From a virus (taxonomy: Duplodnaviria > Heunggongvirae > Uroviricota > Caudoviricetes), in the IMG/VR virus record IMGVR_UViG_2698536392_000015, positions 1-53,751 of that record: a stretch of 53,751 nucleotides of DNA; one strand, 5' to 3'. Under the pieces are notes generated by a model, which did not search any database, had not been told where the DNA came from, and saw nothing but the letters and a program-made list of their open reading frames with translations. This document shows, in pieces, positions 2,443 to 52,661 of this stretch. The position numbers and the translations under genes are program-made. How positions within the stretch are numbered: position 1 is the first letter of the stretch; each line of letters begins with the position of its first letter.

Positions 2443-3005
2443 TATCGCGTCCTCAACAATGAATTTTGTGATGCGGTGCCTGGTGCCTCCAGGTGACGTT
2501 AACCAGTTAACAATTAACGCCGGATACAGAGAATCCACCCATAACACTGTTTTTGGTTTTAACTGTTCCGCGTGCGCTGAGCCGCATTCACCGCATCACA
2601 AAATTCACTTTAAAAAGGGCGGCAGAGCAGCCACGGAGTAAAACTGATACCGCCAAACGTCACCAGAAAATTGATAACAGAGGGCGTTGCAGCGGGGTTG
2701 TCACTTAAGCGTATGGTCAGCCTGACAACCCGGTGTCCTCAAGGGGAAGGAATAACCCCGCCATACTTACCGCCGCGCCATTTCGCGGATTGCCACAACC
2801 AGAAGCGCACGGTCGAAGAAATTTAACGACAAGACTTATATGCAAAGGGATCTCGCCGTGCGCTTTCGTGTTATGCCCTGACTTTTCAGGGAAATATCCT
2901 TTCAGTAAACTGTCAGTACCGGATTCTTATCCGTGTCCGGCGCACGACCACACGTGACAGCGTGTTGGTCTCCATTTTTAACCCAGAACCTCAATGGAGG
3001 ATAAA

Positions 3006-3215
3006 ATGCCAAACAAAAAAAGAAATCCGCTTATTGAAAAACAGATTGAATGCCTGGTAAATCAACTCAGGCAATCAGGGTTATTAAAAACTCATTCAGA
3101 GTTGAGGCTCACAGAATCAGCATTCGACGATAAATTAAATAATGTCCTTTATAATGGCATTATTGATTTTAATCGTTCTGTTGGTCGCCGCGGCCCTGCT
3201 GGTGTTTCCTTATAA
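3006..3215 (+). CDS. Small hypothetical protein (69 aa)
   Basis: ATG at 3006 with GGAGG 5 nt upstream; AT-rich; convergent with 3216..3854. Confidence 0.35.
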   Translation: MPNKKRNPLIEKQIECLVNQLRQSGLLKTHSELRLTESAFDDKLNNVLYNGIIDFNRSVGRRGPAGVSL

Positions 3216-3854
3216 TTACCAGTCAATCCAGAGTGGACCGTGTTCAGCGTAAATATAACTGTACACATCCAGATTATATTTGTGGTCTGTTAAGAACAGG
3301 CCGCAAATACATGCCGAAGCTTCCAGTGCAGCGGCTCTGTTACTGAATAACCATGTAGCAACATTCCAGCGTTTTTCTGCATCCCAGTCTTTCTCAAGGC
3401 CTGATACCATGAAGAAACCGTTAGTGTTGCCATCAAATAATTCTGTTTCCAAATTTTTAAGCAATGCCTGATGGACTCTTGCCAGGTATTCCGCCGGAAT
3501 TTCGCCACGAATTCTGATGAGATTGTCATAAACAAACATGTTCCCCGCATATGGCGATTTTTCTTTCTTGTTTTTTAAACCAGCATCATGAGCAAACTGA
3601 TCAATTTCTTCTTCCGTTGGTTTCGTATTGATGTTTTGCGCTGTCGTTTCTGCAATTTTATTTGCCACACTCTCTGAGTCGTGTTTATTTATAGACGCAC
3701 AGAAATACAATCCGGTAAACGCATCGCGCACATTACGAGCCATATTATCAGTGTCTTTTTTCGTTACCGATTCCAATTCAAGTTCGTTCAGACGATGACG
3801 AAGTGTGTGTGCTGCAATCTCCTGGATTGAAGGAGGTAAATCTTTAAATTCCAT
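3216..3854 (-). CDS. Hypothetical prophage protein (212 aa)
   Basis: Track ORF 3216..3866; start MEFKDLPP at 3854 with GAGG RBS; stop abuts the upstream gene. Confidence 0.5.
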   Translation of the reverse strand: MEFKDLPPSIQEIAAHTLRHRLNELELESVTKKDTDNMARNVRDAFTGLYFCASINKHDSESVANKIAETTAQNINTKPTEEEIDQFAHDAGLKNKKEKSPYAGNMFVYDNLIRIRGEIPAEYLARVHQALLKNLETELFDGNTNGFFMVSGLEKDWDAEKRWNVATWLFSNRAAALEASACICGLFLTDHKYNLDVYSYIYAEHGPLWIDW

Positions 3855-12430: not shown

Positions 12431-12600
12431 TGAATCATTTGATACCGACAAGGGTTTTAGTGAAAGGAGGTGAAATCACCTGTAAGATGCTGAAATAAAA
12501 CAGGTGATGTATAGTTCGGACGGAAAACTCTTTTTGATACCGACTGCTCAACAAATAGTCAAAAGATCAAAAAACGGCGACACATTTGATACTGCTAATT
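12431..12600. repeat. Left-end transposase-binding repeats (attL, L1-L3 like)
   Basis: TTTGATACCGAC at 12438 and 12533, TTTGATACTGC at 12585; spacing resembles Mu L1/L2/L3. Confidence 0.6.
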
Positions 12601-12776: not shown

Positions 12777-13388
12777 TTAACCAACAACATTTTTCTTTAC
12801 TGTCACTGCCCCTGATTCCTGGGTGGCGTTATTGCTCGAGTTGTACTTCTCAATAACGCGCAAAATCTCTTTGTCTGTTTCTTCACTTCCCGCCATTCCT
12901 ATCTTTATTGCATTTTTTAGTACGGGACGTAATGGCAAGGCATCAATGATGCTTTCTACCGCATCCTGGCTGATTGTAGATGTATTCATTGCTGCCAGCC
13001 TGACAAGGTTGTTAGTACCTTCTCGCCTGATGAATGTAAGGATTAATTGCTTCTCTTGGGGGCTTAGAGAGCTAAGCGCCTGATCAATACCCGAACCTGA
13101 ATCGCAATTATTTTCGATTTTTCCGCATTCATCTTCGTTCTTGCCTGTGGCCAACCATTCGAGTGAACAATTACAGGCTTTAGCTATTAAGGCCAGTTTA
13201 TCCAAAGGAGGGAAGTTTTTCCCCTTCCTGTAATTTCTTACTGTGGCTTCAGATAGTCCACAAAGGGTCGCCAGTTCGACGTTTGTCATGTCTCCCATAG
13301 CCATAGCTAAGCGTTCTGAAAATCGGTTTATTCCTTCCATATCAATAAACCGTTCCGCACTGGATACGGTTTTTTCTGCCTTATCCAT
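12777..13388 (-). CDS. Mu-like prophage repressor (XRE-type HTH)
   Basis: HTH (MTNVELATLCGLSEATVRNYRKGK); leftward gene at the left end, divergent from ner. Confidence 0.7.
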   Translation of the reverse strand: MDKAEKTVSSAERFIDMEGINRFSERLAMAMGDMTNVELATLCGLSEATVRNYRKGKNFPPLDKLALIAKACNCSLEWLATGKNEDECGKIENNCDSGSGIDQALSSLSPQEKQLILTFIRREGTNNLVRLAAMNTSTISQDAVESIIDALPLRPVLKNAIKIGMAGSEETDKEILRVIEKYNSSNNATQESGAVTVKKNVVG

Positions 13389-13821: not shown

Positions 13822-15912
13822 ATGTGGGTAACAGCAAAAGAATGTGTTGGTCTTCCTGATTTACCAATGATGGAACATAACATTCGCCATCGACTCACAA
13901 AAGCAGCTGCGGGAAATGCAGCCATGTTACGCAAACGTAAGGGGACAAAAGCAATCGAATTTAATATCGATTGTTTGCCTTCTGGCGCGCAACAAGTATT
14001 GCGTGAACGTTATGCCCTTCAACTGATGACGCAAAAAGCCGATGAATCACCGGCTCCGGTGGTGACAAAGGCCAGACGCTCGCCTGCCGTGGTTGATGCG
14101 GTGGAGGCATATCGCGGATCACCACAACTGATGGTTGAACGCCTTAATGCCCTGACTGAAAACCAGCGCCAGGTGGCTGATGCACGAATCGCGATCGTCA
14201 GCGAAGTGATGAAAGTCGCGCAACAACCCGGTTTCAGCTGTGCGAAAGCTATCCGGTTTATCGTTGACAACCTGGCACGTTCGCAGCTGGACGAGCGCAT
14301 TGTGGCAATGGTTGAGACGGCGAACGCCAAAAAGGGAAACAGCCGCGCGTTGAGTGAAATCACGCTGAAACGCTGGATTGCAGCCTTTAACAAGGCGCAG
14401 AACGCCGCCGAACGCCTGCTTTTACTGGCACCGGGTAAGCGCCAGGAAATAAAAGCCGAAGATATTAACTGGCTGCCCGAATTTCTGGCGCAGTATCGCC
14501 AGTCAAACGGCCGACCAATGACCGAGGCTTACGAGGATTTTGTCGCTGAATGGCAGCACCGGCACGCTGATGAGCCTTATATGCTCGATATCATGCCGTC
14601 TTATGACACCATTCGCCGCGCAATGAAGAAACTGCCGGAAGTGGTGAAACAAAAAGGCCGGGTGACCGGCAGTGAATACCGCCAGCTTGAGGGATTCACG
14701 CGCCGCGACTGGTCAAAAATGCCGGTGAATTATGTCTGGATTGGTGACGGTCACGGCATGAAGCTGAAATGCGCACACCCGGTTCACGGTCGGCCATTTG
14801 CACCGGAAGTGACCTTTGTTATCGACGGTGGCACGCGCTTTGTGGTGGGCTGGAGCCTTGACCTGGCTGAAAATGTTTTCGCCGTAGCCGGTGCCATACA
14901 GCACGGCATTCGCCATCACGGCAAACCGTTTCTGTATTACTCGGATAACGGCTCCGGGGAAACCGCCGACATCCTGGATAAGGAGGTTGTGGGGATACTG
15001 CCGCGACTGGGGATTAATCACCCGACCGGGATTGCCGGTAATCCGCAGGGACGAGGCATTATCGAACGGCTTAACCGCACATTACCGATGCGCATAGCCC
15101 GTAAATACCGCACCTATTTCGGGAAAGGTGCAGATCGCGAGACGTTACGCAAAACCAACCGCGATTTACGCTCGGCATTTACTGCCCTGCAACAGGGCAA
15201 ACGGCTGAACGCCCGGCAGCAGTCAGCGATGCGTGATTTACCGTCCTGGTCTGAACTGATTGATGCCATTCGTGACGGTGTTGAGTGGTACAACAACCGG
15301 CCGCACGATGAATTACCCATGAAGCCGAACGGGAAACATTACAGCCCGGCGGAGTTCAGAAAAAAACGCCTGGCGGAAGAGGACACTGAAATTGAATGGC
15401 TGTCCGATGTTGAGCTGCGGGATATGTTCCGGCCGATGGTGGAACGCCCTGTAAGACGCTGTGAAATACGCTGGCTGAATAATATTTACTACGCGCCCGA
15501 GCTGCGTGACGAGCATGGCCGCAAGGTGCTTATCAGCTATGACATTCATGATGCCGAACGAATTACCGTTCGTCGCCCGGATGGCAGCGTGATTTGCGAG
15601 GCGGTATGGGACGGCAATAAACGCGAAGCCTTCCCGGTCAGCGCGGAATACTACAAACAGCAGCAGCGCCTTAAAGGTATGCGTAAACGCGCAGAGGAAA
15701 AAATCCGTGATGCCGAGGATGAGGTTGTCAACGTGCTGGAGCACAAGCCGCAGGAGCCATGGCTGGAAAACATATACCGCCCTGTGGGTAATACGGTGAC
15801 CGTTCAGCGACCAGCCGTTGATGATGAACCTGATGAAGAATACGAGCGTAATTTCCAGCGGGGATTGCAGTTGCTGGAAGCGAAATTAAAAGAAAATGAC
15901 CCGCTGGCCTGA
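13822..15912 (+). CDS. Mu-type DDE transposase
   Basis: 696 aa; N-terminal WVTAKECVGLPDLP resembles the MuA N-terminus; position and size match MuA. Confidence 0.9.
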   Translation: MWVTAKECVGLPDLPMMEHNIRHRLTKAAAGNAAMLRKRKGTKAIEFNIDCLPSGAQQVLRERYALQLMTQKADESPAPVVTKARRSPAVVDAVEAYRGSPQLMVERLNALTENQRQVADARIAIVSEVMKVAQQPGFSCAKAIRFIVDNLARSQLDERIVAMVETANAKKGNSRALSEITLKRWIAAFNKAQNAAERLLLLAPGKRQEIKAEDINWLPEFLAQYRQSNGRPMTEAYEDFVAEWQHRHADEPYMLDIMPSYDTIRRAMKKLPEVVKQKGRVTGSEYRQLEGFTRRDWSKMPVNYVWIGDGHGMKLKCAHPVHGRPFAPEVTFVIDGGTRFVVGWSLDLAENVFAVAGAIQHGIRHHGKPFLYYSDNGSGETADILDKEVVGILPRLGINHPTGIAGNPQGRGIIERLNRTLPMRIARKYRTYFGKGADRETLRKTNRDLRSAFTALQQGKRLNARQQSAMRDLPSWSELIDAIRDGVEWYNNRPHDELPMKPNGKHYSPAEFRKKRLAEEDTEIEWLSDVELRDMFRPMVERPVRRCEIRWLNNIYYAPELRDEHGRKVLISYDIHDAERITVRRPDGSVICEAVWDGNKREAFPVSAEYYKQQQRLKGMRKRAEEKIRDAEDEVVNVLEHKPQEPWLENIYRPVGNTVTVQRPAVDDEPDEEYERNFQRGLQLLEAKLKENDPLA

Positions 15913-15983: not shown

Positions 15984-16916
15984 ATGACTGATATTAACGA
16001 TGTAATCAAGACCATTGATGAACTTATTGATGGCGGCGTACTGACGCAGTATGCCATCGCCAGAGAGGCGGGAATTTCCGACGGCACATTATCGGCTTTC
16101 CGTAAGGGAAAATATAAAGGCGATAACGCTGCTGTGGCTGCTTCCCTGTGTTCCTGGTATGAGAACTGGAATAAACAAAGCGCACTGCCGGAACCGCCGC
16201 AGTTTGTGGAAACGCAGACAGTCCAGGAGCTGCGCGCGCTGTTTCAGGCGGTTCGCCTGATGGGCTGTATTAACGTTATTGTGGGCGTGCCGGGGGTAGG
16301 TAAAACGGCCACCGCCCGTAATTACTGCCAGGAGCAACCAAACACCTGGATGATCACCCTGTCTCCCGCGCATTCCAGCGTCACGGAGTGTCTGCTGGAG
16401 CTGGCCGATGCGCTGGGGATTGATTACACCCGCGCGAACAAGGGGGCATTATCCCGCGCCATCCGCCGTCGCCTGATGGGAACGCGTGGACTGGTGATTG
16501 TGGATGAGGCGGATCATCTTGGTATTGACGGTCTGGAGCAACTCCGGGCAATTCAGGACGCCACGGGGATCGGGATGGTGCTTATTGGTAACCCGCGCGG
16601 ATTGTTTAAAGGTGGACGCCGCGCCTTTGATGATTTATCGCGCCTGTTCAGCCGTCTTGCCCGTACAAAACAACTTCGCAAGGCCAAAAAGGCGGATGTG
16701 CTGGCCATTGCCAGGGCGTGGGGTATCAGTGGTGAGGCCGAGCTGGCTGTCATGCAGGCTATCGCTGAAAAACCGGGAGCATTACGTGTTTTGACGCATA
16801 CGCTTAACCAGGCGTGGATCACCGCCAGCGGTGAAGGTGCGGCGCTGACAGAAAAACATATTAATGCGGCTTTTAAAGAGGTTTACACCAACCCTGAATT
16901 ACTCTCGCAGGTGTGA
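15984..16916 (+). CDS. MuB-like AAA+ ATPase transposition protein
   Basis: Walker A GVPGVGKT, Walker B LVIVDEAD; follows the transposase gene. Confidence 0.9.
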   Translation: MTDINDVIKTIDELIDGGVLTQYAIAREAGISDGTLSAFRKGKYKGDNAAVAASLCSWYENWNKQSALPEPPQFVETQTVQELRALFQAVRLMGCINVIVGVPGVGKTATARNYCQEQPNTWMITLSPAHSSVTECLLELADALGIDYTRANKGALSRAIRRRLMGTRGLVIVDEADHLGIDGLEQLRAIQDATGIGMVLIGNPRGLFKGGRRAFDDLSRLFSRLARTKQLRKAKKADVLAIARAWGISGEAELAVMQAIAEKPGALRVLTHTLNQAWITASGEGAALTEKHINAAFKEVYTNPELLSQV

Positions 16917-22292: not shown

Positions 22293-22805
22293 ATGAATCG
22301 CGCTTCCCTGATTACCTTAATACATGTCGCAAAACGCGATCTACAGCTTGACCGGGAGACCTATATATCCGCGCTGCTGGCAGCCACCGGCAAAACCAGC
22401 TGCCGGGATATGTCACCGGATGAGTTATCCCGCGTGCTGGATGTTTTCAAAAAACGCGGTTTTAAAGTGCGCCAGAAGCCGGTTAACCGGGCCTTAAAAC
22501 CGGGTACGGTGACCGCCAAAATTCGTGCCATCTGGAAGGTAATGCACCGGCAGGGCTTTATCTCTGATGGTGCGGAAACCGCCCTTAACCGCTGGGTGAA
22601 ATCGCAGACGGCCGCGCAGAACGGCGGCGAAGGTGTGGCAAACTGGCAGTGGCTGGAGCAACACCCCGCCCTGGCCTCAGATGTGCTGGAGCGTCTCAAG
22701 CGATGGCACCGCCGCAAAATGCTGGCCGCGATGGGAATGCCCGAACGCACGCTGATGGGGTATGACGCCGTTTGCAGGCAGTATGAAAAATCACTTCCCC
22801 GTTAA
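22293..22805 (+). CDS. GemA-like regulatory protein
   Basis: N-terminal pattern (LITLIHVAKRDLQLDRETYISALL...TGKTSCRDMSPDEL) resembling Mu gp16/GemA as recalled. Confidence 0.6.
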   Translation: MNRASLITLIHVAKRDLQLDRETYISALLAATGKTSCRDMSPDELSRVLDVFKKRGFKVRQKPVNRALKPGTVTAKIRAIWKVMHRQGFISDGAETALNRWVKSQTAAQNGGEGVANWQWLEQHPALASDVLERLKRWHRRKMLAAMGMPERTLMGYDAVCRQYEKSLPR

Positions 22806-22874: not shown

Positions 22875-23300
22875 ATGGCAGAAACTCAGATGAGCATGTT
22901 TGGTGGTGACAGTGAGCAACAGCACGCCCTTATCGACCGCCTTGATGACATCCCTGATGATGTTCTCAAAAAGAACTGGCCGCGGACCCTGTCTGAACTG
23001 GTTGAAGTCACCGGCGCAGAACTTCAGCGTCAGGGGATTGAGCCGGTACTGGCCGGTAAACTGGCACGCAAGGTGGCTGCGGCTCAGGCAGCCTATATGG
23101 GCGGACGGGGTTATTACCTGCCGGTCGGGGAATCTCTCTTTGCCGAGCTGCGAAACAATGAGATATTTTCGCGCTGGGACCGGGGCGAGAAAATTGAATC
23201 CCTTCGCCGCCATTACCGGATGTCAGAAACCCAGATTTATACCGTCATACGCGAACAGCGCCGTCTGCATCTGGCAAGAACGCAACCGCCACTTTTCTGA
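22875..23300 (+). CDS. Mor/C-family transcriptional activator
   Basis: C-terminal HTH ...LRRHYRMSETQIYTVIREQRR and YYLPVGESLF pattern typical of the Mor/C family; GGAGG RBS. Confidence 0.7.
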   Translation: MAETQMSMFGGDSEQQHALIDRLDDIPDDVLKKNWPRTLSELVEVTGAELQRQGIEPVLAGKLARKVAAAQAAYMGGRGYYLPVGESLFAELRNNEIFSRWDRGEKIESLRRHYRMSETQIYTVIREQRRLHLARTQPPLF

Positions 23301-46610: not shown

Positions 46611-47171
46611 ATGCTGATTGGCTATATACGCGTATCAACAAATGACCAGAACACCGGTTTACAAAGAAATGCGCTGGAATGTGCAGGATGTGAGCAGATT
46701 TTTGAAGACAAAATGAGCGGAAAAACAACGCAGCGGCCGGGACTGAAGCGGGCACTGAAGAAACTAAAACCCGGTGACACACTGATGGTCTGGAAACTGG
46801 ACAGGCTGGGGCGCAGTATGCGCCACCTTGTTGCGCTGACAGATGAATTACAGCAACAGGGGATAAATTTTCGTAGTCTTACTGACAACATTGATACGTC
46901 AACCCCCATGGGGCGCTTCTTTTTTCACATAATGGGTGCGCTGGCAGAAATGGAGCGTGAATTAATTGTCGAACGGACACGGGCTGGTCTTGCAGCTGCC
47001 CGTGAAAGGGGACGAACCGGCGGCAGACCCCGCCGTCTCACGCAGGAACAATACGAGCAGGTTGGGCGTTTACTGGCCGGGGGTGTCAGTCGAAGACAGG
47101 TGGCACTTATTTTTGATATCGGCCTTTCAACCCTTTATCGTTATTATCCTGCGAGCGTTTCGGAAAAATAA
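46611..47171 (+). CDS. gin: Serine DNA invertase (Gin/Hin/Pin/Cin family)
   Basis: N-terminal MLIGYIRVSTNDQNT...RNALECAGCEQIFEDK and C-terminal HTH match Mu Gin as recalled; adjacent to the invertible segment. Confidence 0.9.
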   Translation: MLIGYIRVSTNDQNTGLQRNALECAGCEQIFEDKMSGKTTQRPGLKRALKKLKPGDTLMVWKLDRLGRSMRHLVALTDELQQQGINFRSLTDNIDTSTPMGRFFFHIMGALAEMERELIVERTRAGLAAARERGRTGGRPRRLTQEQYEQVGRLLAGGVSRRQVALIFDIGLSTLYRYYPASVSEK

Positions 47172-47270: not shown

Positions 47271-49313
47271 ATGACGTCCAAATGGGTTCAACTATCATCA
47301 ATGCCCGGAAACTTTACCGTTAAAGTTTCCGGTGGTACAGCGGCATTTCTTGAGGCTCCCTTTCCTCCGGCCGAAACAAAAGGAGGAATGACATTTGCTG
47401 ACTGTCTCATCAGTTTTAATACACGGGATTGCCTGTGGGTAAGGCCAGTATCCGGTGATCCGAGTGTGGAAATTACCGGAGCGGGTATCGGTGCGGTCAT
47501 TCCGTTAAGTGCTGATGTTGCCGGTACTGCTGAACCGTCAGACTGGGATAATGCTGAAACACATACCCGTCCGTCAGGAAATGAAACTGCTTCCAGCTCC
47601 CCTTCCTGGTATTACGTGGTGGTTCTTGCTGGTCAGTCAAACGGTATGGCTTACGGTGAAGGTCTGCCACTGCCGGAGACATATGATCGCCCCGAACCGC
47701 GTATTATGCAGTTAGCCCGTCGCAGTACTGTCACGCCGGGAGGTAAAGTCTGTCAGTATAACGACATCATTCTGGCCGACCACTGTCTGCATGATGTGCA
47801 GGATATGAGTGGAAAAAATCACCCGAAAGCGGATGTGGCTAAAGGGCAATATGGCACCGTGGGTCAGGGGCTTCACATTGCCAAAAAACTGCTGCCGTTT
47901 ATTCCGGCAGATGCGGGGATTCTGCTGGTTCCCTGCTGCCGTGGTGGTTCTGCATTCACGGCGGGTGCTGACGGCACGTACAGTGACAGCATGGGTGCTT
48001 CAGAGGACTCAGCCCGATGGGGTGTGGATAAGCCGCTGTATAAGGACTTAATCAGCCGGACAAAAGCGGCACTGGCGAAGAACCCGAAAAACCGCCTGCT
48101 TGCTGTGGTGTGGATGCAGGGCGAGTTTGATATTGATGCGAAGCCGACGGAGCATTCTGCGCTGTTTCTGGCGATGGTGGAAAAATTCCGCGCAGACCTG
48201 GCTGAACAGGCGGAACAGTGTACCGGTGGCAGTGCTGCTGGCGTTCCGTGGATTTGTGGCGATACCACGTATTTCTGGAAACAGAAAAATGAACCGGCAT
48301 ACCAGGCAATCTATGGCGGCTACAAAAACAAAACAGATAAAAACATTCATTTCGTCCCATTAATGACAGATGAAAATGGCGCGAATGTACCTACCAACAA
48401 TCCGACAGAAGACCCGGATATTGAATCCATTGGTTATTACGGCTCAACGTGGCGTAACAATGCTGCCACCTGGACATCTGCGGACCGGGCCAGTCATTTC
48501 AGTGCCTGGGCGCGCCGTGGGATTATTTCCGACCGTCTGGCCACGGCTGTTCTGACTCACGCAGGGCGAACCACAGTAAAAGCCGATGTTCCATCTTCTG
48601 AAACTGATGCGCCAACGCCGTCACCTTCAGAAGCTGAAACAGTAACCACAACAACACTGCTGTCTTACCGTGCCAGTGAGTCTGAAGGGAAGCTGACCGA
48701 ACAGGGCTGGAGTGCAGGTGGAGGTAAAGCGGAAATTGTTGCCGATGAAGGTGCAACTGGTGGAACCGCGATGAAGCTGAGCAAGGAGACGGGTAAAGGA
48801 TCATGGCATCTGGAGCATGATGCCGGTACTGGCGCTGAACTGCTGAAAAATGGCGGCTTAATCAGTTGCCGCTTTAAGGCATCCGGTGAACTGGTGGCAA
48901 ATCAGTATGTCATTGCACTTTACTGGCCGGTTTCCTCTCTGCCGCAGGGTGTCACCCTGACAGGGGATGCAGGGAATAATCTGCTGGCAGCGTTCTACAT
49001 CCAGACAGACGCAAAAGACCTGAATGTGATGTACCACAATGCAAAAGTGGCGACAAATAACCTTAAGCTGGGAACCTTTGGCGCATTTGATAATGAGTGG
49101 CATACGCTGGCCTTCCGCTTTGCCGGGAATAACAGCCTTCAGGTGACGCCGGTTATTGATGGTCAGGACAGTACACCGTTCACGCTGACGCAGTCACCGG
49201 TCAGTGCATTTGCGGCGGATAAACTGCATGTGACAGACATTACCAAAAATGCGACTTACCCGGTGCTGATTGACAGCATTGTGGTGGAAGTGAAAAAAGC
49301 GGTAACAGAATAA
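47271..49313 (+). CDS. SGNH/sialate-O-acetylesterase-like hydrolase with C-terminal lectin-like domain (680 aa)
   Basis: VVLAGQSNGMAYGEG resembles the GQSN motif of carbohydrate acetylesterases; Thr/Ser/Pro linker then a beta-rich C-terminal domain. Confidence 0.65.
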   Translation: MTSKWVQLSSMPGNFTVKVSGGTAAFLEAPFPPAETKGGMTFADCLISFNTRDCLWVRPVSGDPSVEITGAGIGAVIPLSADVAGTAEPSDWDNAETHTRPSGNETASSSPSWYYVVVLAGQSNGMAYGEGLPLPETYDRPEPRIMQLARRSTVTPGGKVCQYNDIILADHCLHDVQDMSGKNHPKADVAKGQYGTVGQGLHIAKKLLPFIPADAGILLVPCCRGGSAFTAGADGTYSDSMGASEDSARWGVDKPLYKDLISRTKAALAKNPKNRLLAVVWMQGEFDIDAKPTEHSALFLAMVEKFRADLAEQAEQCTGGSAAGVPWICGDTTYFWKQKNEPAYQAIYGGYKNKTDKNIHFVPLMTDENGANVPTNNPTEDPDIESIGYYGSTWRNNAATWTSADRASHFSAWARRGIISDRLATAVLTHAGRTTVKADVPSSETDAPTPSPSEAETVTTTTLLSYRASESEGKLTEQGWSAGGGKAEIVADEGATGGTAMKLSKETGKGSWHLEHDAGTGAELLKNGGLISCRFKASGELVANQYVIALYWPVSSLPQGVTLTGDAGNNLLAAFYIQTDAKDLNVMYHNAKVATNNLKLGTFGAFDNEWHTLAFRFAGNNSLQVTPVIDGQDSTPFTLTQSPVSAFAADKLHVTDITKNATYPVLIDSIVVEVKKAVTE

Positions 49314-49459
49314 AAAAATCCCGCCGGTCATGATACGGCTGGCGGGAGCTACCTAACCCATAAAGGAAAATAAAAATACTACCGAAGGAGTAGTTATCAG
49401 TCGCTTCGATGTTTTTACCCGATAACGAATTATGTAGTCAATATCAAAGGTAAGGTTAT

Positions 49460-49642
49460 ATGACATTCGTTCATACAATGCTGCTTTATTTCTGCGCAGT
49501 GGTCAGTGCGTTATATCTGGTGAGCGGCGGTTATAAGGTCATCAGAAATTATATTCGCCGTAAAATTGATGATGCGGCAGCTGAAAAACTCAGTAAAACA
49601 GCACAGGCACCGTCATCCCCAAACGACCCGACCCCGCTCTGA
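49460..49642 (+). CDS. Small membrane protein (60 aa)
   Basis: ATG with AAGGTAAGG RBS; one hydrophobic helix. Confidence 0.4.
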   Translation: MTFVHTMLLYFCAVVSALYLVSGGYKVIRNYIRRKIDDAAAEKLSKTAQAPSSPNDPTPL

Positions 49643-49677
49643 TAACGGGGCAATATACCTGCAAAAGGAGAATATTC

Positions 49678-49923
49678 ATGCCAGAGATTAAAGGCACGGT
49701 TACTGAAGAGCTTGTCAAACAGGCACTTTATTCTGAAGAAGTGAACCGCGTGCTGAAGGCGCAGGTTCGCAAGGATTTTGAGGCACAAATCGACGCATAT
49801 GTTGATGAAGTGCTGGCCCGAATGGTTGGCCGTTCTCCGGCTGAAAACAGCACGGAAAATGAGCCTCAACCCGTAGAGCAACCAGAGCCGGTTCAGCCCG
49901 GAACTGACGGTACTATGATGTAA
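49678..49923 (+). CDS. Hypothetical small protein (81 aa)
   Basis: ATG with AAGGAG RBS. Confidence 0.45.
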   Translation: MPEIKGTVTEELVKQALYSEEVNRVLKAQVRKDFEAQIDAYVDEVLARMVGRSPAENSTENEPQPVEQPEPVQPGTDGTMM

Positions 49924-49961
49924 CAATACCGACCGGCAGGTTTCCCTGCCGGGTGAATTTG

Positions 49962-50132
49962 TTAATGCACGTTTTGTGTATTTTCCCTCCGGGGAGAACA
50001 GGCAGGACATATCAGCATCCTGAAACAGGAAGCATTTTTTGGTTTGTATGTCTTGCCATTTTGAGATCGAGAACGGCGATAGATGAGCTGTAAGGGAGTC
50101 TTACAGGCAGGGCAAACAGGCTCTTTATCCAT
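49962..50132 (-). CDS. Small zinc-ribbon protein (56 aa), divergent from the com/methyltransferase operon
   Basis: MDKEPVCPAC...CPAC; ATG preceded by AAGGAG. Confidence 0.45.
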   Translation of the reverse strand: MDKEPVCPACKTPLQLIYRRSRSQNGKTYKPKNASCFRMLICPACSPRRENTQNVH

Positions 50133-50541
50133 GATAAAGATCTCCTTTTTATGCATCTCTGCTTTACAGGAGACCGGGGAATATCATAGGATACGCCACG
50201 AGCTCGAAGTAAAGCATTGATGCAAAATTGTCTAAATCGGCCCAGAATAGTTCGCGCTATCTGGGTCGCCCTTTATGTATGTAGTATCCTGTTGATTTGA
50301 AACATACTACATATACGCGCGATCCTACCTTCACTGTATAAAAAGTCAATAAAATGATCATTTTATGATCGTTTTCACCACCTAACTCTTCGTTTTCTTT
50401 AAGTAAATAATCACCTCCCTGAATCATTGTTGATGACTTTTCAATCTATTTGTTGTATCAATTAAACAAATCGAATCGATCGTTTTTGTCGATCGATTGC
50501 ATGAGAAAGGCATCAACAACAAAGCAGGAGGTTATGCGGCC
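50133..50541. promoter_or_regulatory. AT-rich divergent control region with GATC cluster and palindrome upstream of com
   Basis: GATC at 50320, 50356, 50367, 50478, 50491; perfect 9-bp inverted repeat AATCGATCG-N7-CGATCGATT (50474-50498). Confidence 0.5.
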
Positions 50542-50727
50542 ATGTATCGAAACATACGGTGCCGACACTGCAATAAGCTACTGGCACGGGCCAGTTTCAG
50601 TTATCTGGAAGTAAAATGTCCGCGCTGCAAAACCCTCAATCAAATCACATCTCAGAGCGCCACAGAGCACCCCACATACACAAGGAAATCCTGCCGTGGG
50701 GAACAAGAAACATTACTTTCAGTCTGA
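50542..50727 (+). CDS. com: Com-like zinc-finger translational regulator
   Basis: MYRNIRCRHCNKLLARASFSYLEVKCPRCK aligns with Mu Com (MKSIRCKNCNKLLFKADSFDHIEIRCPRCK) as recalled; AGGAGG RBS; overlaps the downstream gene start. Confidence 0.8.
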   Translation: MYRNIRCRHCNKLLARASFSYLEVKCPRCKTLNQITSQSATEHPTYTRKSCRGEQETLLSV

Positions 50728-51748
50728 TAAGTCACTAACCTATGGTTCAGTATGCAGTGGTATTGAAGCTGCGACAGTAGCCTGGAGCAATCTTGGCTGG
50801 AAAGCCAGTTGGTTCAGTGAAATAGAGGACTTCCCGTCAACACTTCTTTCATATCGCTGGCCCCATATACCAAATCTTGGTGATATGGCTTTGCTTGCGC
50901 CTCGTATCAGGGATGGGCTTATTGAAGCACCAGATATTCTTGTAGGTGGAACTCCGTGTCAGGCATTCAGTATGTCAGGCAAACGAAAAGGCCTTTCAGA
51001 TCCACGGGGGCAGTTAACACTGTCTTTTGTTGAACTGGCGAATCAGATAGATACCGTTCGGGCATCGCTCAATAAATCCCCCTCAATAATCGTATGGGAA
51101 AACGTCACAGGAGTTTTAAGTAGCCATGACAATGCATTCGGTCATTTTCTTGGTGCGCTGGCCGGAGCAGGTTGCGCATTACAGCCAGCAAGGAAAAGAT
51201 GGGCAAACGCTGGTGTTGTGTCTGGACCATCGCGTATCGTCGCCTGGCGAGTACTTGATGCCCAATATTTCGGAGTCGCCCAGGCTCGCAGAAGAGTGTT
51301 TGTTGTGGCAAGTGCTGGAAAAAGGCTCGATCCCGGAAAGGTATTATTTGAGTTCCCGCCTGTGTCGCAGGGCGATAAAAACTATTACGGAAAGAAGAAA
51401 AAATCCGAATCCCTTCTTGATCAAGGCATTGAAGGAAAATTGCACCGATATTGCCTTGAAGCATTGCCAAAACGAACAGGCACAGTAATAGCTGGCTATA
51501 ACGGAACAACTAACCAGGACATGACTATGTCTGGTGGGCTCATAGTTGAAAGAGCGCCATATTCAAGGGTTCGTAGGTTGACGCCAACCGAATGCGAGAG
51601 GCTACAAGGTTTTCCCGATGGATATACAGATATTCCATGGAAAAATTCATCTCCAGCTCATCGTTATAAGGCCATTGGAAATTCAATGCCTGTACCGGTC
51701 ATGAAATGGATTGGTCGAAGAATACAGGAAGCGTTAAACGAAGTTTAA
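50696..51748 (+). CDS. DNA (cytosine-5)-methyltransferase
   Basis: C5-MTase motifs: GSVCSGIEA (I-like), GGTPCQAFSMSGKRKG (IV), IIVWENVTGVLS (VI), AQARRRVFVVA (VIII), RRLTPTECERLQGFPDGY (C-terminal); GTG start overlapping com. Confidence 0.85.
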   Translation: MGNKKHYFQSDKSLTYGSVCSGIEAATVAWSNLGWKASWFSEIEDFPSTLLSYRWPHIPNLGDMALLAPRIRDGLIEAPDILVGGTPCQAFSMSGKRKGLSDPRGQLTLSFVELANQIDTVRASLNKSPSIIVWENVTGVLSSHDNAFGHFLGALAGAGCALQPARKRWANAGVVSGPSRIVAWRVLDAQYFGVAQARRRVFVVASAGKRLDPGKVLFEFPPVSQGDKNYYGKKKKSESLLDQGIEGKLHRYCLEALPKRTGTVIAGYNGTTNQDMTMSGGLIVERAPYSRVRRLTPTECERLQGFPDGYTDIPWKNSSPAHRYKAIGNSMPVPVMKWIGRRIQEALNEV

Positions 51749-51824
51749 ACCTAAGCAAAAGACATTATGAAGTTGGTTTTTGTGCCGTTAAAAGATGTCT
51801 TTAAGGAGTGCAAAGGAAAGCGCC

Positions 51825-51918
51825 AATTTAGTATCAAAAAAGATGCTTATCGGCGCTTTTCATCGGTATCAAATGAAATGCAAATCGGTATCAAAAAAAT
51901 CGCCGCGCTATAATCACA
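51825..51918. repeat. Right-end transposase-binding repeats (attR, R1-R3 like)
   Basis: GTATCAAA at 51831, CGGTATCAAA at 51864 and 51886, inverted relative to the left-end motifs. Confidence 0.6.
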
Positions 51919-51953
51919 CTGAAACAGTCATTCACCGTTATGGTACCGGCGCA

Positions 51954-52661
51954 ATGGTGTTGTGCTGGCACTGCGACAACCAGCTGCGCGACCAGACATC
52001 TGATTCACTGGCGCAACTTGCTCAGCAGAATCTGGTTGCCTGGATGATTGACGTCATCCGTCACGCAATAAGCGGTACGCAGGAGAGGGAGTTATCGCTG
52101 GCCGAATTATCCTGGTGGGCGGTCTGCAATCAGGTGGTGGATGCACTACCTGAGGCAGTAGCGCGTCGTTCGCTGGGATTACCAGCGGAAAAAATCCGCT
52201 CAGTATACCGTGAGAGCGACATCGTACCGGGAGAGCAGACCGCCACCAGCATACTGAATCAGCGCACAAAAAATCTTGCGCCGTTGCCTCACGTCCACCA
52301 GCAACAACCCTCACCACAGGAAAAGGCGGTGGTCAGCATTGCCGTTGATCCGGAGTCTCCGGAATCTTTCATGAAGCGGCCTAAACGTCGCCGTTGGGTA
52401 AATGAGAAATACACGCGCTGGGTAAAGACACAGCCGTGCGCGTGTTGTGGAAAGCCAGCCGACGATCCCCATCACCTGATCGGCCATGGTCAGGGCGGCA
52501 TGGGGACAAAAGCCCACGATATTTTCACGCTACCGCTGTGTCGGGAGCATCACAACGAGCTTCATGCGGATCCGCTGGCGTTCGAAGAAAAGTATGGTTC
52601 CCAGGTTGATTTGATTTTTCGTTTTCTTGATCACGCCTTTGCAACAGGCGTACTTGGGTAA
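51954..52661 (+). CDS. DUF968-type (YdfU-like) prophage protein, probably the 3' portion of a gene disrupted by the Mu-like insertion
   Basis: C-terminal CACCGKPADDPHHLIGHGQGGMGTKAHD...PLCREHHNELH motif; track ORF start 51795 lies inside the Mu-like end repeats. Confidence 0.45.
   Translation: MVLCWHCDNQLRDQTSDSLAQLAQQNLVAWMIDVIRHAISGTQERELSLAELSWWAVCNQVVDALPEAVARRSLGLPAEKIRSVYRESDIVPGEQTATSILNQRTKNLAPLPHVHQQQPSPQEKAVVSIAVDPESPESFMKRPKRRRWVNEKYTRWVKTQPCACCGKPADDPHHLIGHGQGGMGTKAHDIFTLPLCREHHNELHADPLAFEEKYGSQVDLIFRFLDHAFATGVLG

Follow-up and report, generated by a model that had tools for sequence, protein, structure and literature searches.

The closest described system is the com-mom operon of phage Mu, in which the gene of the translational activator Com overlaps that of the adenine-modifying enzyme Mom (PF25680), and in which the effect of Dam methylation acts through OxyR binding to unmethylated sites. 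Retention of com with replacement of mom is also known, as com is followed by an adenine methyltransferase (MTase) and not by mom in FluMu, Pnm1, Hia and B3, and a Com site was proposed at the 5′ end of hin1523 (PMC3299994). The unrelated MTases which occupy the mom position after com in these elements (FluMu hin1523, Pnm1 nma1821, hia5 of H. influenzae aegyptius and ORF47/48 of Pseudomonas phage B3) are N6-adenine enzymes, and Hia5, Hin1523 and Nme1821 have been shown to be non-specific. Here we describe a com locus in which the payload is a C5-cytosine MTase (PF00145), present in a stretch of phage DNA of 53,751 nucleotides that was analysed as a whole (hereafter the window). The com and MTase genes overlap in this locus, whereas in Haemophilus com and payload are separated by a gap of +56 nt and a GATC cluster is lacking. 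No com-C5-methylase pair was described in the literature covered by our full-text searches; the keeping of com during payload replacement is already published for adenine methylases, hence nothing is overturned by this locus, and it is the C5 payload that is new.

The com/MTase pair is carried by an Sp18-like transposable (Mu-like) prophage, and this element is nested within a lambdoid prophage; Sp18-like is the name used in the literature for such elements of CC119 STEC (PMC10132054). An identical element in LC727895 is annotated in GenBank as an inserted Mu-like phage. The prophage encodes a c-type repressor, MuA, MuB, GemA, an orthologue of the late-gene activator C, an endolysin and a Gin-like recombinase. 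The C orthologue (Mor/C family; 22875..23300, plus strand; PF08765, 2.9e-32) has the same place as in Mu, with gemA on one side and the endolysin gene on the other, and shows 41% identity to Mu C against 27% to Mu Mor. [quoted passage not shown] The right end (51862..51912, minus strand) was assigned from the LC727895 annotation together with a repeat search, with the terminus at about 51912. Two exact copies of TTTGATACCGAT (51862-51873 and 51884-51895), resembling transposase-binding sites, are found near it, and query position 2013, which corresponds to window position 51912, is where most of the E. coli matches stop. The left end is ambiguous, with repeats resembling transposase sites at 12438, 12533 and 12585 and a position of about 12576 implied by the GenBank annotation.

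The com gene (50542..50727, plus strand) encodes a homologue of Mu Com of 61 aa, which was matched by Pfam Zn_ribbon_Com (PF10122; E=5.8e-13, 48.5 bits against a cutoff of 22.9) and by the PHROG family “gpCom control of modification” (1.5e-13). It has 47% identity to Mu Com and carries a zinc finger of the form C-x2-C-x16-C-x2-C with cysteines 7, 10, 26 and 29, the columns of which are invariant in the alignment with Mu Com; its Shine-Dalgarno sequence, AGGAGG, is at 50526-50531. The MTase gene (50696..51748, plus strand; 350 aa, GTG start) shares 32 nt with com, compared with an overlap of 50 nt in Mu. In Pfam the product matched PF00145 alone (E=2e-42, profile positions 5-323 of 324), with a further match to TIGR00675 dcm (7e-40), and no start other than the GTG is possible before motif I. 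Motifs IV, VI, VIII, IX and X align to M.HhaI, and the segments TPCQAFS, ENV, QARRRVF, RRLTPTECERLQGFP and GNSMPVPV are invariant across 13 homologues; as judged by all its catalytic motifs, the protein is a canonical and complete C5-cytosine enzyme. Prediction of its target from solved structures was attempted and set aside, as M.HhaI (the best) and M.HaeIII align at the core motifs alone and the target-recognition region, which in this family is variable and lies between motifs VIII and IX, is therefore uninformative; none of its close relatives is a characterised enzyme. In an identical E. coli locus PGAP calls both genes, the first as “Com family”, with the same coordinates. A Com homologue overlapping the start of a C5-MTase, as the initial annotation had proposed from the letters of the sequence, is thus borne out by the profile score, the overlap and the PGAP calls.

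The proposal that the MTase replaces mom was examined in 233 complete E. coli genomes matching the flanks of the locus, where the flank identity is about 96-100%. The MTase version was matched at full length in 8 of these 233 genomes, and in most of the others the slot is annotated as “protein mom”. In pairwise alignment with E. coli strain 113, which has the mom version, identity extends across com to the shared GTG start GTGGGGAACA and is then lost; the unrelated stretch ends at about window position 51815, some 100 nt before the prophage end, and from there on the two are identical again. This gives a swapped cassette at 50706..51814 (plus strand), to which the sister prophages with mom have no similar DNA. 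The Sp18-type com-mom prophages of E. coli O157 have the same backbone, and what they share with the window comprises the zinc-ribbon ORF discussed below, the intergenic DNA, com as far as GTGGGGAACA and the final ~100 bp of the right end, whereas the cassette is of ~1.1 kb (MTase) here and of ~0.8 kb (mom) in O157. On these alignments mom is replaced after its third or fourth codon by a C5 MTase that retains the start codon of mom, and the replacement claim stands. The MTase ORF has a GC content of 46.6% against 53.5% for the prophage. Since the swap junction falls within com, the C-terminal tail of Com also differs, reading …GEQETLLSV here and …GEQKASHIPYHQHA in the mom-carrying sisters. The exchange has further counterparts: a second MTase allele with 79% aa identity is present in the same E. 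coli backbone, an allele with 69% identity follows com in Salmonella Mu-like prophages, and another backbone pair (L172 and L173) differs solely in having MTase or Mom. All com-coupled MTases begin with an MGN start and about six extra residues. Because the exchange starts only after codon 3-4, the methylase inherits the GUG, the Shine-Dalgarno region, the start-codon hairpin and the Com motif of mom, all of which are located in the 3′ end of com.

The Com RNA-binding motif derived by SELEX is bipartite, GAGNNCC-N(2-3)-GAGNNCC (PMC6483171). An exact GAGNNCC-N3-GAGNNCC match, GAGCGCCACAGAGCACC, is found in the 3′ part of com (50655..50671, plus strand); it is the only match in the window, where 0.03 is expected, for a motif that was derived with Haemophilus Com. 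The match is directly 5′ of a predicted translation-inhibition hairpin (50670..50701, plus strand; MFE and centroid folds), in which CCCCAC (50670-50675) would pair with GUGGGG (50696-50701), that is the MTase GUG and the next codon, and the inner pairs AGG (50684-50686) and CCU (50690-50692) would cover the Shine-Dalgarno AAGGA. Mu too has a GUG-GGN start inside a CCCAC/GUGGG hairpin that is closely preceded by a CC-N3-GAG motif, and an analogous hairpin was predicted by folding in Mu and in the mom-version relative. The stability is modestly above that of shuffled sequences (z about -1.8 to -2.0). The position of the Com motif relative to the payload is alike in Mom-, C5- and N6/N4-coupled loci; these three unrelated kinds of payload all begin with GUGGG after GAGCAYCCCAC, and CCCAC...GUGGG is invariant in every enterobacterial com operon whatever the payload. 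Both arms being invariant across all enterobacterial lineages, no covariation was found in the hairpin, and as CCCAC also serves as codons for the conserved His-Pro-Thr of Com, constraint at the RNA level and at the protein level are confounded. The retained motif and the predicted hairpin support the description of the methylase as Com-coupled, and Com may bind the CC-N(2-3)-GAG site and activate translation of the MTase.

Five GATC sites are present upstream of com (50321, 50356, 50367, 50478 and 50491), in a region with 39% GC against 51% for the window, and the sites, the AT-rich DNA and a perfect 9-bp inverted repeat were all found as had been noted. This is the sole set of five GATC within 174 bp and the densest cluster in the window. 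By chance 0.55 would be expected, and the Poisson probability is 2.7e-4 for a fixed window, rising to roughly 0.1 once scanning is allowed for. The inverted repeat AATCGATCG-N7-CGATCGATT (50474..50498) encloses the last two sites, which lie 13 bp apart at distances of 51 and 64 nt before the com ATG, and its pattern does not recur in the window even when 3 mismatches are allowed. The palindrome is kept as ATCGATCG-N7-CGATCGAT in lineages of Salmonella and Citrobacter, and aligns to GATC sites 2 and 3 of Mu Pmom. A GATC pair with 13-bp spacing was found upstream of com in 45 of 48 enterobacterial lineages (background 0.47 GATC per 150 nt), the spacing being 13 bp in 38 lineage variants, and the pair is absent upstream of com in the non-enteric lineages surveyed. 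Conservation across lineages is limited to the two palindrome sites; of the three further GATC in AT-rich DNA (50321..50370), one recurs in L172/L173, a second lineage. The suggestion that the region echoes Dam-dependent control of mom is thus upheld by homology to Pmom and by the conserved pair, and we infer that the palindrome is a Dam-sensitive operator of the com promoter, for which the C orthologue would be the activator.

GATC sites upstream of com are common to both systems, while the layout differs from Mu in several points. Two promoter-proximal GATC forming a perfect palindrome are present here and three in Mu, and the last GATC lies about 48 nt from the com ATG here as against about 72 in Mu. 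The TTAT-N6-ATAA C site of Mu is not present in the com promoter region and, with just 43 nt between the palindrome and the com ATG, the promoter cannot have the geometry of Pmom. A sigma-70 consensus scan of the plus strand at 50430-50541 gave no promoter; the same scan flagged the palindrome as “terminator-like” on the minus strand, which was not credited. When the palindrome, or the 47 nt following it, was searched through the prophage for a shared C-binding site, nothing meaningful was obtained, and no sequence was common to the com upstream region and other late regions of the prophage.

Taken together, we put at roughly three in four the probability that this is a late DNA-modification operon of an Sp18-like prophage, in which mom was exchanged for a C5 MTase under inherited mom-type control. 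By homology with Mu, the operon would be silent in the lysogen, and during late lytic growth the phage C protein would switch on a weak com promoter, whose sensitivity to host Dam methylation would come from the GATC pair upstream of or overlapping it. Com would then be translated and bind GAGNNCC-N3-GAGNNCC beside the hairpin which sequesters the GUG and Shine-Dalgarno of the MTase, and its binding would open the hairpin for ribosomes so that the MTase is made. The enzyme would add 5-methylcytosine to replicated phage DNA before packaging, as a protection against restriction in the next host. Keeping the operon tightly controlled would also spare the lysogen harm, for example from McrBC-type restriction of 5mC DNA. 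What the sequence itself shows is the identity of the genes, the limits of the cassette, the retained RNA motif with a predicted hairpin, the conserved GATC pair and the C orthologue; the regulatory interactions, their timing, the activity and target of the enzyme and its anti-restriction role are presumed by homology. Methylation is expected on induced phage DNA and not in the lysogen, and since a mom-type operon is silent in the lysogen, a missing new 5mC motif there would refute nothing.

Com-less phage C5 MTases of the same subfamily, with the same motifs, are also known. Those of lambdoid prophages of Klebsiella, Citrobacter and Enterobacter and of Pectobacterium phage ZF40 have 63-70% aa identity over the catalytic core, and the C5 domain of phage P1/P7 Dmt/Dam has 47-52%. 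They are located between antiterminator Q and holin or are Dam-type fusions (in P1 Dmt the C5 methyltransferase is the C-terminal domain joined to a Dam-type domain), and they have neither the MGN leader nor the hairpin, those of Klebsiella lambdoid phages beginning directly at the conserved core. A different possibility is therefore an orphan (moron) MTase that is made in the lysogen, by read-through or under signals of its own. It would alter the host methylome, with Com being irrelevant, and its effects would be epigenetic or protective of the host chromosome or prophage. The com-less homologues in the Q-holin interval of the lambdoid prophages speak for it, and the failure of the scan to give a com operon promoter also points this way. 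However, even these com-less enzymes occupy a phage late operon. In the present locus the only possible start is the GUG in the conserved hairpin within com, with no independent promoter or start, and the junction keeps the control elements of mom to the nucleotide in several independent alleles. An orphan role is therefore improbable, and the inherited mom-type operon is preferred.

Upstream of the GATC sites, a divergent gene (49962..50132, minus strand) encodes a zinc-ribbon protein of 56 aa with the pattern CPAC-N33-CPAC, or of 64 aa if the ATG at 50156 is used, with a Shine-Dalgarno AAGGAG 9 nt upstream. The protein matched no family in Pfam, NCBIfam or PHROG, and an exhaustive phmmer search of 1.84 billion representatives gave 4 matches. 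One of these, P0175, is 47% identical with both Cys pairs retained, and its gene is likewise divergent, ~390 bp before com, in two further Mu-like prophages, of which one carries the C5 MTase and the other Mom. The gene is hence real, a small syntenic gene of another prophage lineage as well. PGAP merges its ORF into a “frameshifted” hypothetical gene of 154 aa (49962-50427) that includes three of the five GATC. This longer ORF was rejected as the divergent gene, as one extra C is needed for an intact frame, and it also extends over a variable segment in which indels of 1 and 3 nt occur and runs antisense to a conserved hairpin element; it is probably not a gene.

The conserved non-coding element (50158..50290, plus strand) consists of a box CTGCTTTACAG..TATCATAGGATA..CGAGC followed by a module TGATGC(A/G)A-hairpin-CCCTTTATGTA, the hairpin being at 50243-50267 and terminator-like. 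It is present in E. coli, Salmonella and the L172/L121 lineages with compensatory changes in the stem, and a promoter-like match TTTACA-N18-TAGGAT was obtained in it. A scan of 49400-51950 against Rfam at E<=1 gave no family for this element or for the com/MTase leader.

These features bear on a further reading, close to that of the initial annotation, in which the zinc-ribbon gene, GATC cluster, palindrome, com and MTase form one self-regulating module and the zinc-ribbon protein helps to control the promoter region. The retention of the divergent position in a second prophage lineage and the density of the five-GATC cluster are in its favour. Against it, the start codons of the zinc-ribbon gene and com are 410 bp apart with the promoter-like box and terminator-like hairpin module between them, and the zinc-ribbon gene accompanies either payload, so that the control region can hardly be called shared; the Salmonella com-MTase prophages have an unrelated 51-aa ORF in place of the zinc-ribbon gene; and the zinc-ribbon protein is without a family match. 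The term self-regulating also fails, as the control region is identical in the mom-carrying relatives with nothing methylase-specific in it, and it was therefore inherited and not tuned to the methylase. We give this reading little credence; the regulators would be host Dam (possibly with OxyR), phage C and Com. That the locus is an inert remnant, a defective prophage in which the methylase or its control no longer functions, might be read from the frameshift mark of PGAP on the neighbouring ORF and from the nesting of one prophage in another, but it is very improbable given that the marked ORF is probably no gene, that both com and the MTase gene are intact and no catalytic motif is missing, that the 90% cluster of the MTase comprises 182 sequences and that of the Salmonella allele 1584, and that the element occupies many different chromosomal sites, which implies recent transposition (E. 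coli genome matches; PMC10132054).

Com overlapping or adjoining a modification gene is the arrangement in most of the 160 com loci surveyed, where the overlapping ORF downstream is a Mom in 34, a D12/Dam-like MTase in 57, an N6/N4 MTase in 35 and a C5 MTase in 11; the 281-aa type payload of Haemophilus was also recovered (L033 cluster). The slot payloads found include Mom and two C5-methylase alleles, with an N6/N4 methylase in Salmonella, and on one prophage backbone unrelated classes of anti-restriction enzyme behave like alleles of one slot, each swap junction leaving the Com-responsive translational switch whole. This constitutes a natural experiment on the minimal Com-responsive element, at about 50655-50705. 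STEC and Salmonella Mu-like phages may be predicted to evade different host restriction systems, with the warning that such methylases would not show in lysogen methylomes.

It is tempting, though doubtful at present, to regard com with its 3′-terminal RNA switch as a conserved socket for interchangeable payloads and the C5 enzyme as one of very low specificity. [quoted passage not shown] If the socket is real, adjacency to com can be used as a handle for finding new DNA-modifying enzymes, with candidates in the com-linked ORFs of L018, L023 and L074, which gave no match in Pfam, NCBIfam or PDB; those of L018 and L023 had no similarity to the Hia5-type protein of L033.

On the other side of the zinc-ribbon gene, a GC-rich hairpin, CCGGCAGG-TTTC-CCTGCCGG (49933..49952; inverted repeat I3), was read from the sequence between this gene and a convergent DUF826 gene, and is likely a bidirectional terminator.

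The com gene (50542-50727, plus strand; 61 aa, cysteines 7/10/26/29; PF10122, 5.8e-13) overlaps by 32 nt a 350-aa C5-cytosine DNA methyltransferase (50696-51748; PF00145, 2e-42, whole profile covered), whose PCQ, ENV, QxRxR and GNS motifs line up with M.HhaI. GTG 50696 is the sole start codon upstream of methylase motif I and was also chosen by PGAP, which had already labelled both genes. The initial annotation took this methylase for a replacement of mom, and this was borne out by near-identical flanks which hold mom in the same slot with a shared GTG start. The flanks were present in 233 of 5,426 complete E. coli genomes, but only 8 of these match 80% or more of the query; in most of the others the slot is annotated as 'protein mom', and mom-type genomes match query positions 1-811 and the last ~100 bases. 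Compared with strain 113, an E. coli relative with the mom version, the window is essentially identical from the small divergent zinc-ribbon ORF through com up to GTGGGGAACA, which is the common GTG start and about three codons. Past this point the two are unrelated, and identity returns at ~51815 and continues to the prophage end. The swapped segment is ~50706-51814, and the GC content of the methylase ORF is 46.6% versus 53.5% for the prophage. The same E. coli backbone also holds a second methylase allele (79% amino acid identity), Salmonella Mu-like prophages carry a 69% allele after com (its 90% cluster has 1,584 members), and com loci L172 and L173 form a further backbone pair whose sole difference is methylase versus Mom.

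In Mu, the Com binding site is a short hairpin adjoining a translation-inhibition structure with the mom GUG within the stem of the latter, and the Com motif obtained by SELEX is CC-N(2-3)-GAG, with a bipartite form GAGNNCC-N(2-3)-GAGNNCC (PMC6483171). The bipartite motif has one match in the 53.7-kb window, at 50655-50671 (0.03 expected), and its offset is equal in Mom-, C5- and N6/N4-coupled loci. Directly 3′ of it, pairing of CCCCAC (50670-50675) with GUGGGG (50696-50701) is predicted, with inner AGG/CCU pairs covering the Shine-Dalgarno sequence; analogous folds are predicted in the mom-version relative and in Mu. The gain in stability over shuffled sequences is only modest (z about -2), the arms are invariant and hence not scorable for covariation, and CCCAC doubles as codons for the conserved His-Pro-Thr of Com. 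In enterobacterial lineages the unrelated Mom, C5 methylase and N6/N4 methylase all start with GUGGG preceded by GAGCAYCCCAC, and this is difficult to account for unless the RNA element is under constraint. Judged from these sequences, the methylase appears to keep the translational switch of mom. The N6/N4 loci (L013, L014 and L124-L154 of Salmonella and relatives, about 2608-3434) fill the same socket with a third kind of payload, a 263-268-aa DNA methylase (PF01555) with the same GUGGGG start and the same Com motif before it, and with three GATC sites upstream of com.

Relatives of the methylase with 63-70% identity were found in Klebsiella lambdoid prophages between antiterminator Q and holin, without com. 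These com-less methylases and their Citrobacter and Enterobacter relatives begin right at the conserved core, and all com-coupled methylases have an N-terminal MGN and about six additional residues; the MGN leader is a scar of fusion to the initiation region of mom. The closest proteins in cultured phages are those of Pectobacterium ZF40 (64%) and the C5 domain of P1/P7 Dmt (46-52%), neither with a defined target.

DNA methylases that take the place of mom after a com homologue are already known from FluMu, Pnm1, H. influenzae aegyptius and phage B3, and a putative Com site at the 5′ end of hin1523 has been noted (PMC3299994). Those payloads are adenine methylases (PMC3299994), whereas the payload here is a C5 methylase; the novelty here is in the class of enzyme and in a fusion made repeatedly, and exactly, at the start-codon hairpin, and no description of a com-C5-methylase operon was found in the literature searched. 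The pairing of com with modification genes is general in our survey of 160 com loci, where the payload was Mom in 34, Dam-like/D12 in 57, N6/N4 in 35 and C5 in 11 (two of them non-enteric MAGs). ORFs of ~300-390 aa overlapping the 3′ end of the com homologue in Neisseria (L018, L020, L082, L161, L170), Acinetobacter (L023) and a Methanosarcinales MAG (L074) had no match in Pfam, NCBIfam or PDB, and those of L018 and L023, the two compared, showed no similarity to Hia5-type adenine methylase; the reading frames may be mis-called, or the products may be novel enzymes of DNA modification. An unexpected partner, aspartyl-tRNA synthetase, was observed in three Margulisiibacteriota/Saganbacteria MAGs (L060, L075, L090), where its gene start has a 31-nt overlap with a com-like zinc-ribbon ORF.

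Upstream of com, five GATC sites and a perfect 9-bp inverted repeat (50474-50498) are present as first annotated. The density of the GATC cluster is unique in the window (0.55 expected per 174 bp; P about 3e-4 per fixed window) and its GC content is 39%. In alignment, the palindrome corresponds to the GATC-2/GATC-3 part of the Mu Pmom upstream region, and lineages of Salmonella and Citrobacter, although diverged in the flanks, keep it as ATCGATCG-N7-CGATCGAT. Among 116 distinct com upstream regions, at least two GATC sites within 150 nt occur in 45/48 enterobacterial ones (background 0.47), with stereotyped spacings of 13 and 18 bp, and none in Acinetobacter, Neisseria, Haemophilus and other such lineages. 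Because it is conserved across the enterobacterial regions, the proximal GATC pair would be an inherited Dam-sensing element; the three distal sites are lineage-specific, one being common to L172/L173. A C orthologue is encoded (41% identity to Mu C, 27% to Mor), and the com promoter and C site were looked for and neither was located. The last GATC lies ~48 nt from the com ATG versus ~72 in Mu, no TTAT-N6-ATAA dyad was found upstream of com, no motif common to this region and other late regions of the prophage was found, and the TATACT box which follows the palindrome in Salmonella-type lineages has no equivalent in the window. The module had also been called self-regulating, which is unsupported because the control region is identical with mom or methylase as payload. 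Mom-type operons are silent in lysogens, and therefore a lysogen versus cured-strain methylome would probably show nothing; the informative DNA is that of induced cultures or virions, rather than of the lysogen.

The divergent 56-aa CPAC...CPAC ORF exists (50132-49962, minus strand). An exhaustive phmmer search of 1.84 billion representatives gave four proteins only, three of them near-identical and the fourth a 53-aa protein of 47% identity which keeps both Cys pairs and the GKTY.PK core. Two other Mu-like prophages carry this relative ~390 bp upstream of com, likewise placed divergently, and the ORF is therefore a real small gene; it has no match in Pfam or NCBIfam and no informative PHROG match, and is lacking in Salmonella com-methylase prophages. 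The idea that it shares a control region with com is unsupported, because a conserved non-coding element (50158-50290, plus strand) separates them. Counterparts of this element occur at other com loci (L005 1940-2150, L121 ~2130-2280, L172 3700-3990, reverse complement). It has a box CTGCTTTACAG..TATCATAGGATA..CGAGC, promoter-like as TTTACA-N18-TAGGAT on the plus strand or a TATGAT -10 on the minus strand, and then one copy or two of a module TGATGC(A/G)A-hairpin-CCCTTTATGTA, with compensatory changes in the stems from lineage to lineage. A scan of Rfam gave no matching family; the element could act as a terminator that shields com from transcription entering from upstream, or it could be a small RNA. 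PGAP calls a 154-aa hypothetical protein at 49962-50427 (minus strand), 'frameshifted' in the window version; it is open only with one extra C and runs antisense across the hairpin element, and is probably an artefact, the true gene being the 56-aa ORF at its 3′ end.

The locus lies at the right-hand end of a Mu-like, transposable prophage, whose genes in the window include those of a c-type repressor (12777-13388, minus strand), MuA (13822-15912), MuB (15984-16916), GemA (22293-22805), a Mor/C-family protein (22875-23300), a Gin-like recombinase (46611-47171) and an endolysin. Two Stx-phage records in GenBank match the 1.9-kb query at 100% identity and label the segment 'region of the inserted Bacteriophage Mu-like phage', with the element ending at ~51912 of the window; the DUF968, RusA and Q genes (51795 onwards) are part of the lambdoid prophage that received the insertion. 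Mu-like insertions in Stx phage genomes of CC119 STEC were termed Sp18-like, their modification genes being undiscussed (PMC10132054). The insertion target is the nin-region DUF968 gene (51795-52661), and the 288-aa ORF called there begins within the Mu right end. This end (51862-51912) is marked by exact, transposase-site-like TTTGATACCGAT repeats; resembling sites on the left at 12438, 12533 and 12585 give several candidates for the left terminus. The interval from the Gin-like recombinase to the com region holds a Stx/lambdoid late-type module (47271-49923, plus strand) with a 680-aa SASA/DUF6645 esterase (NanS-p-like), DUF1378 and DUF826, which suggests that genes flow between the transposable phage and those lambdoid prophages that host its insertions.
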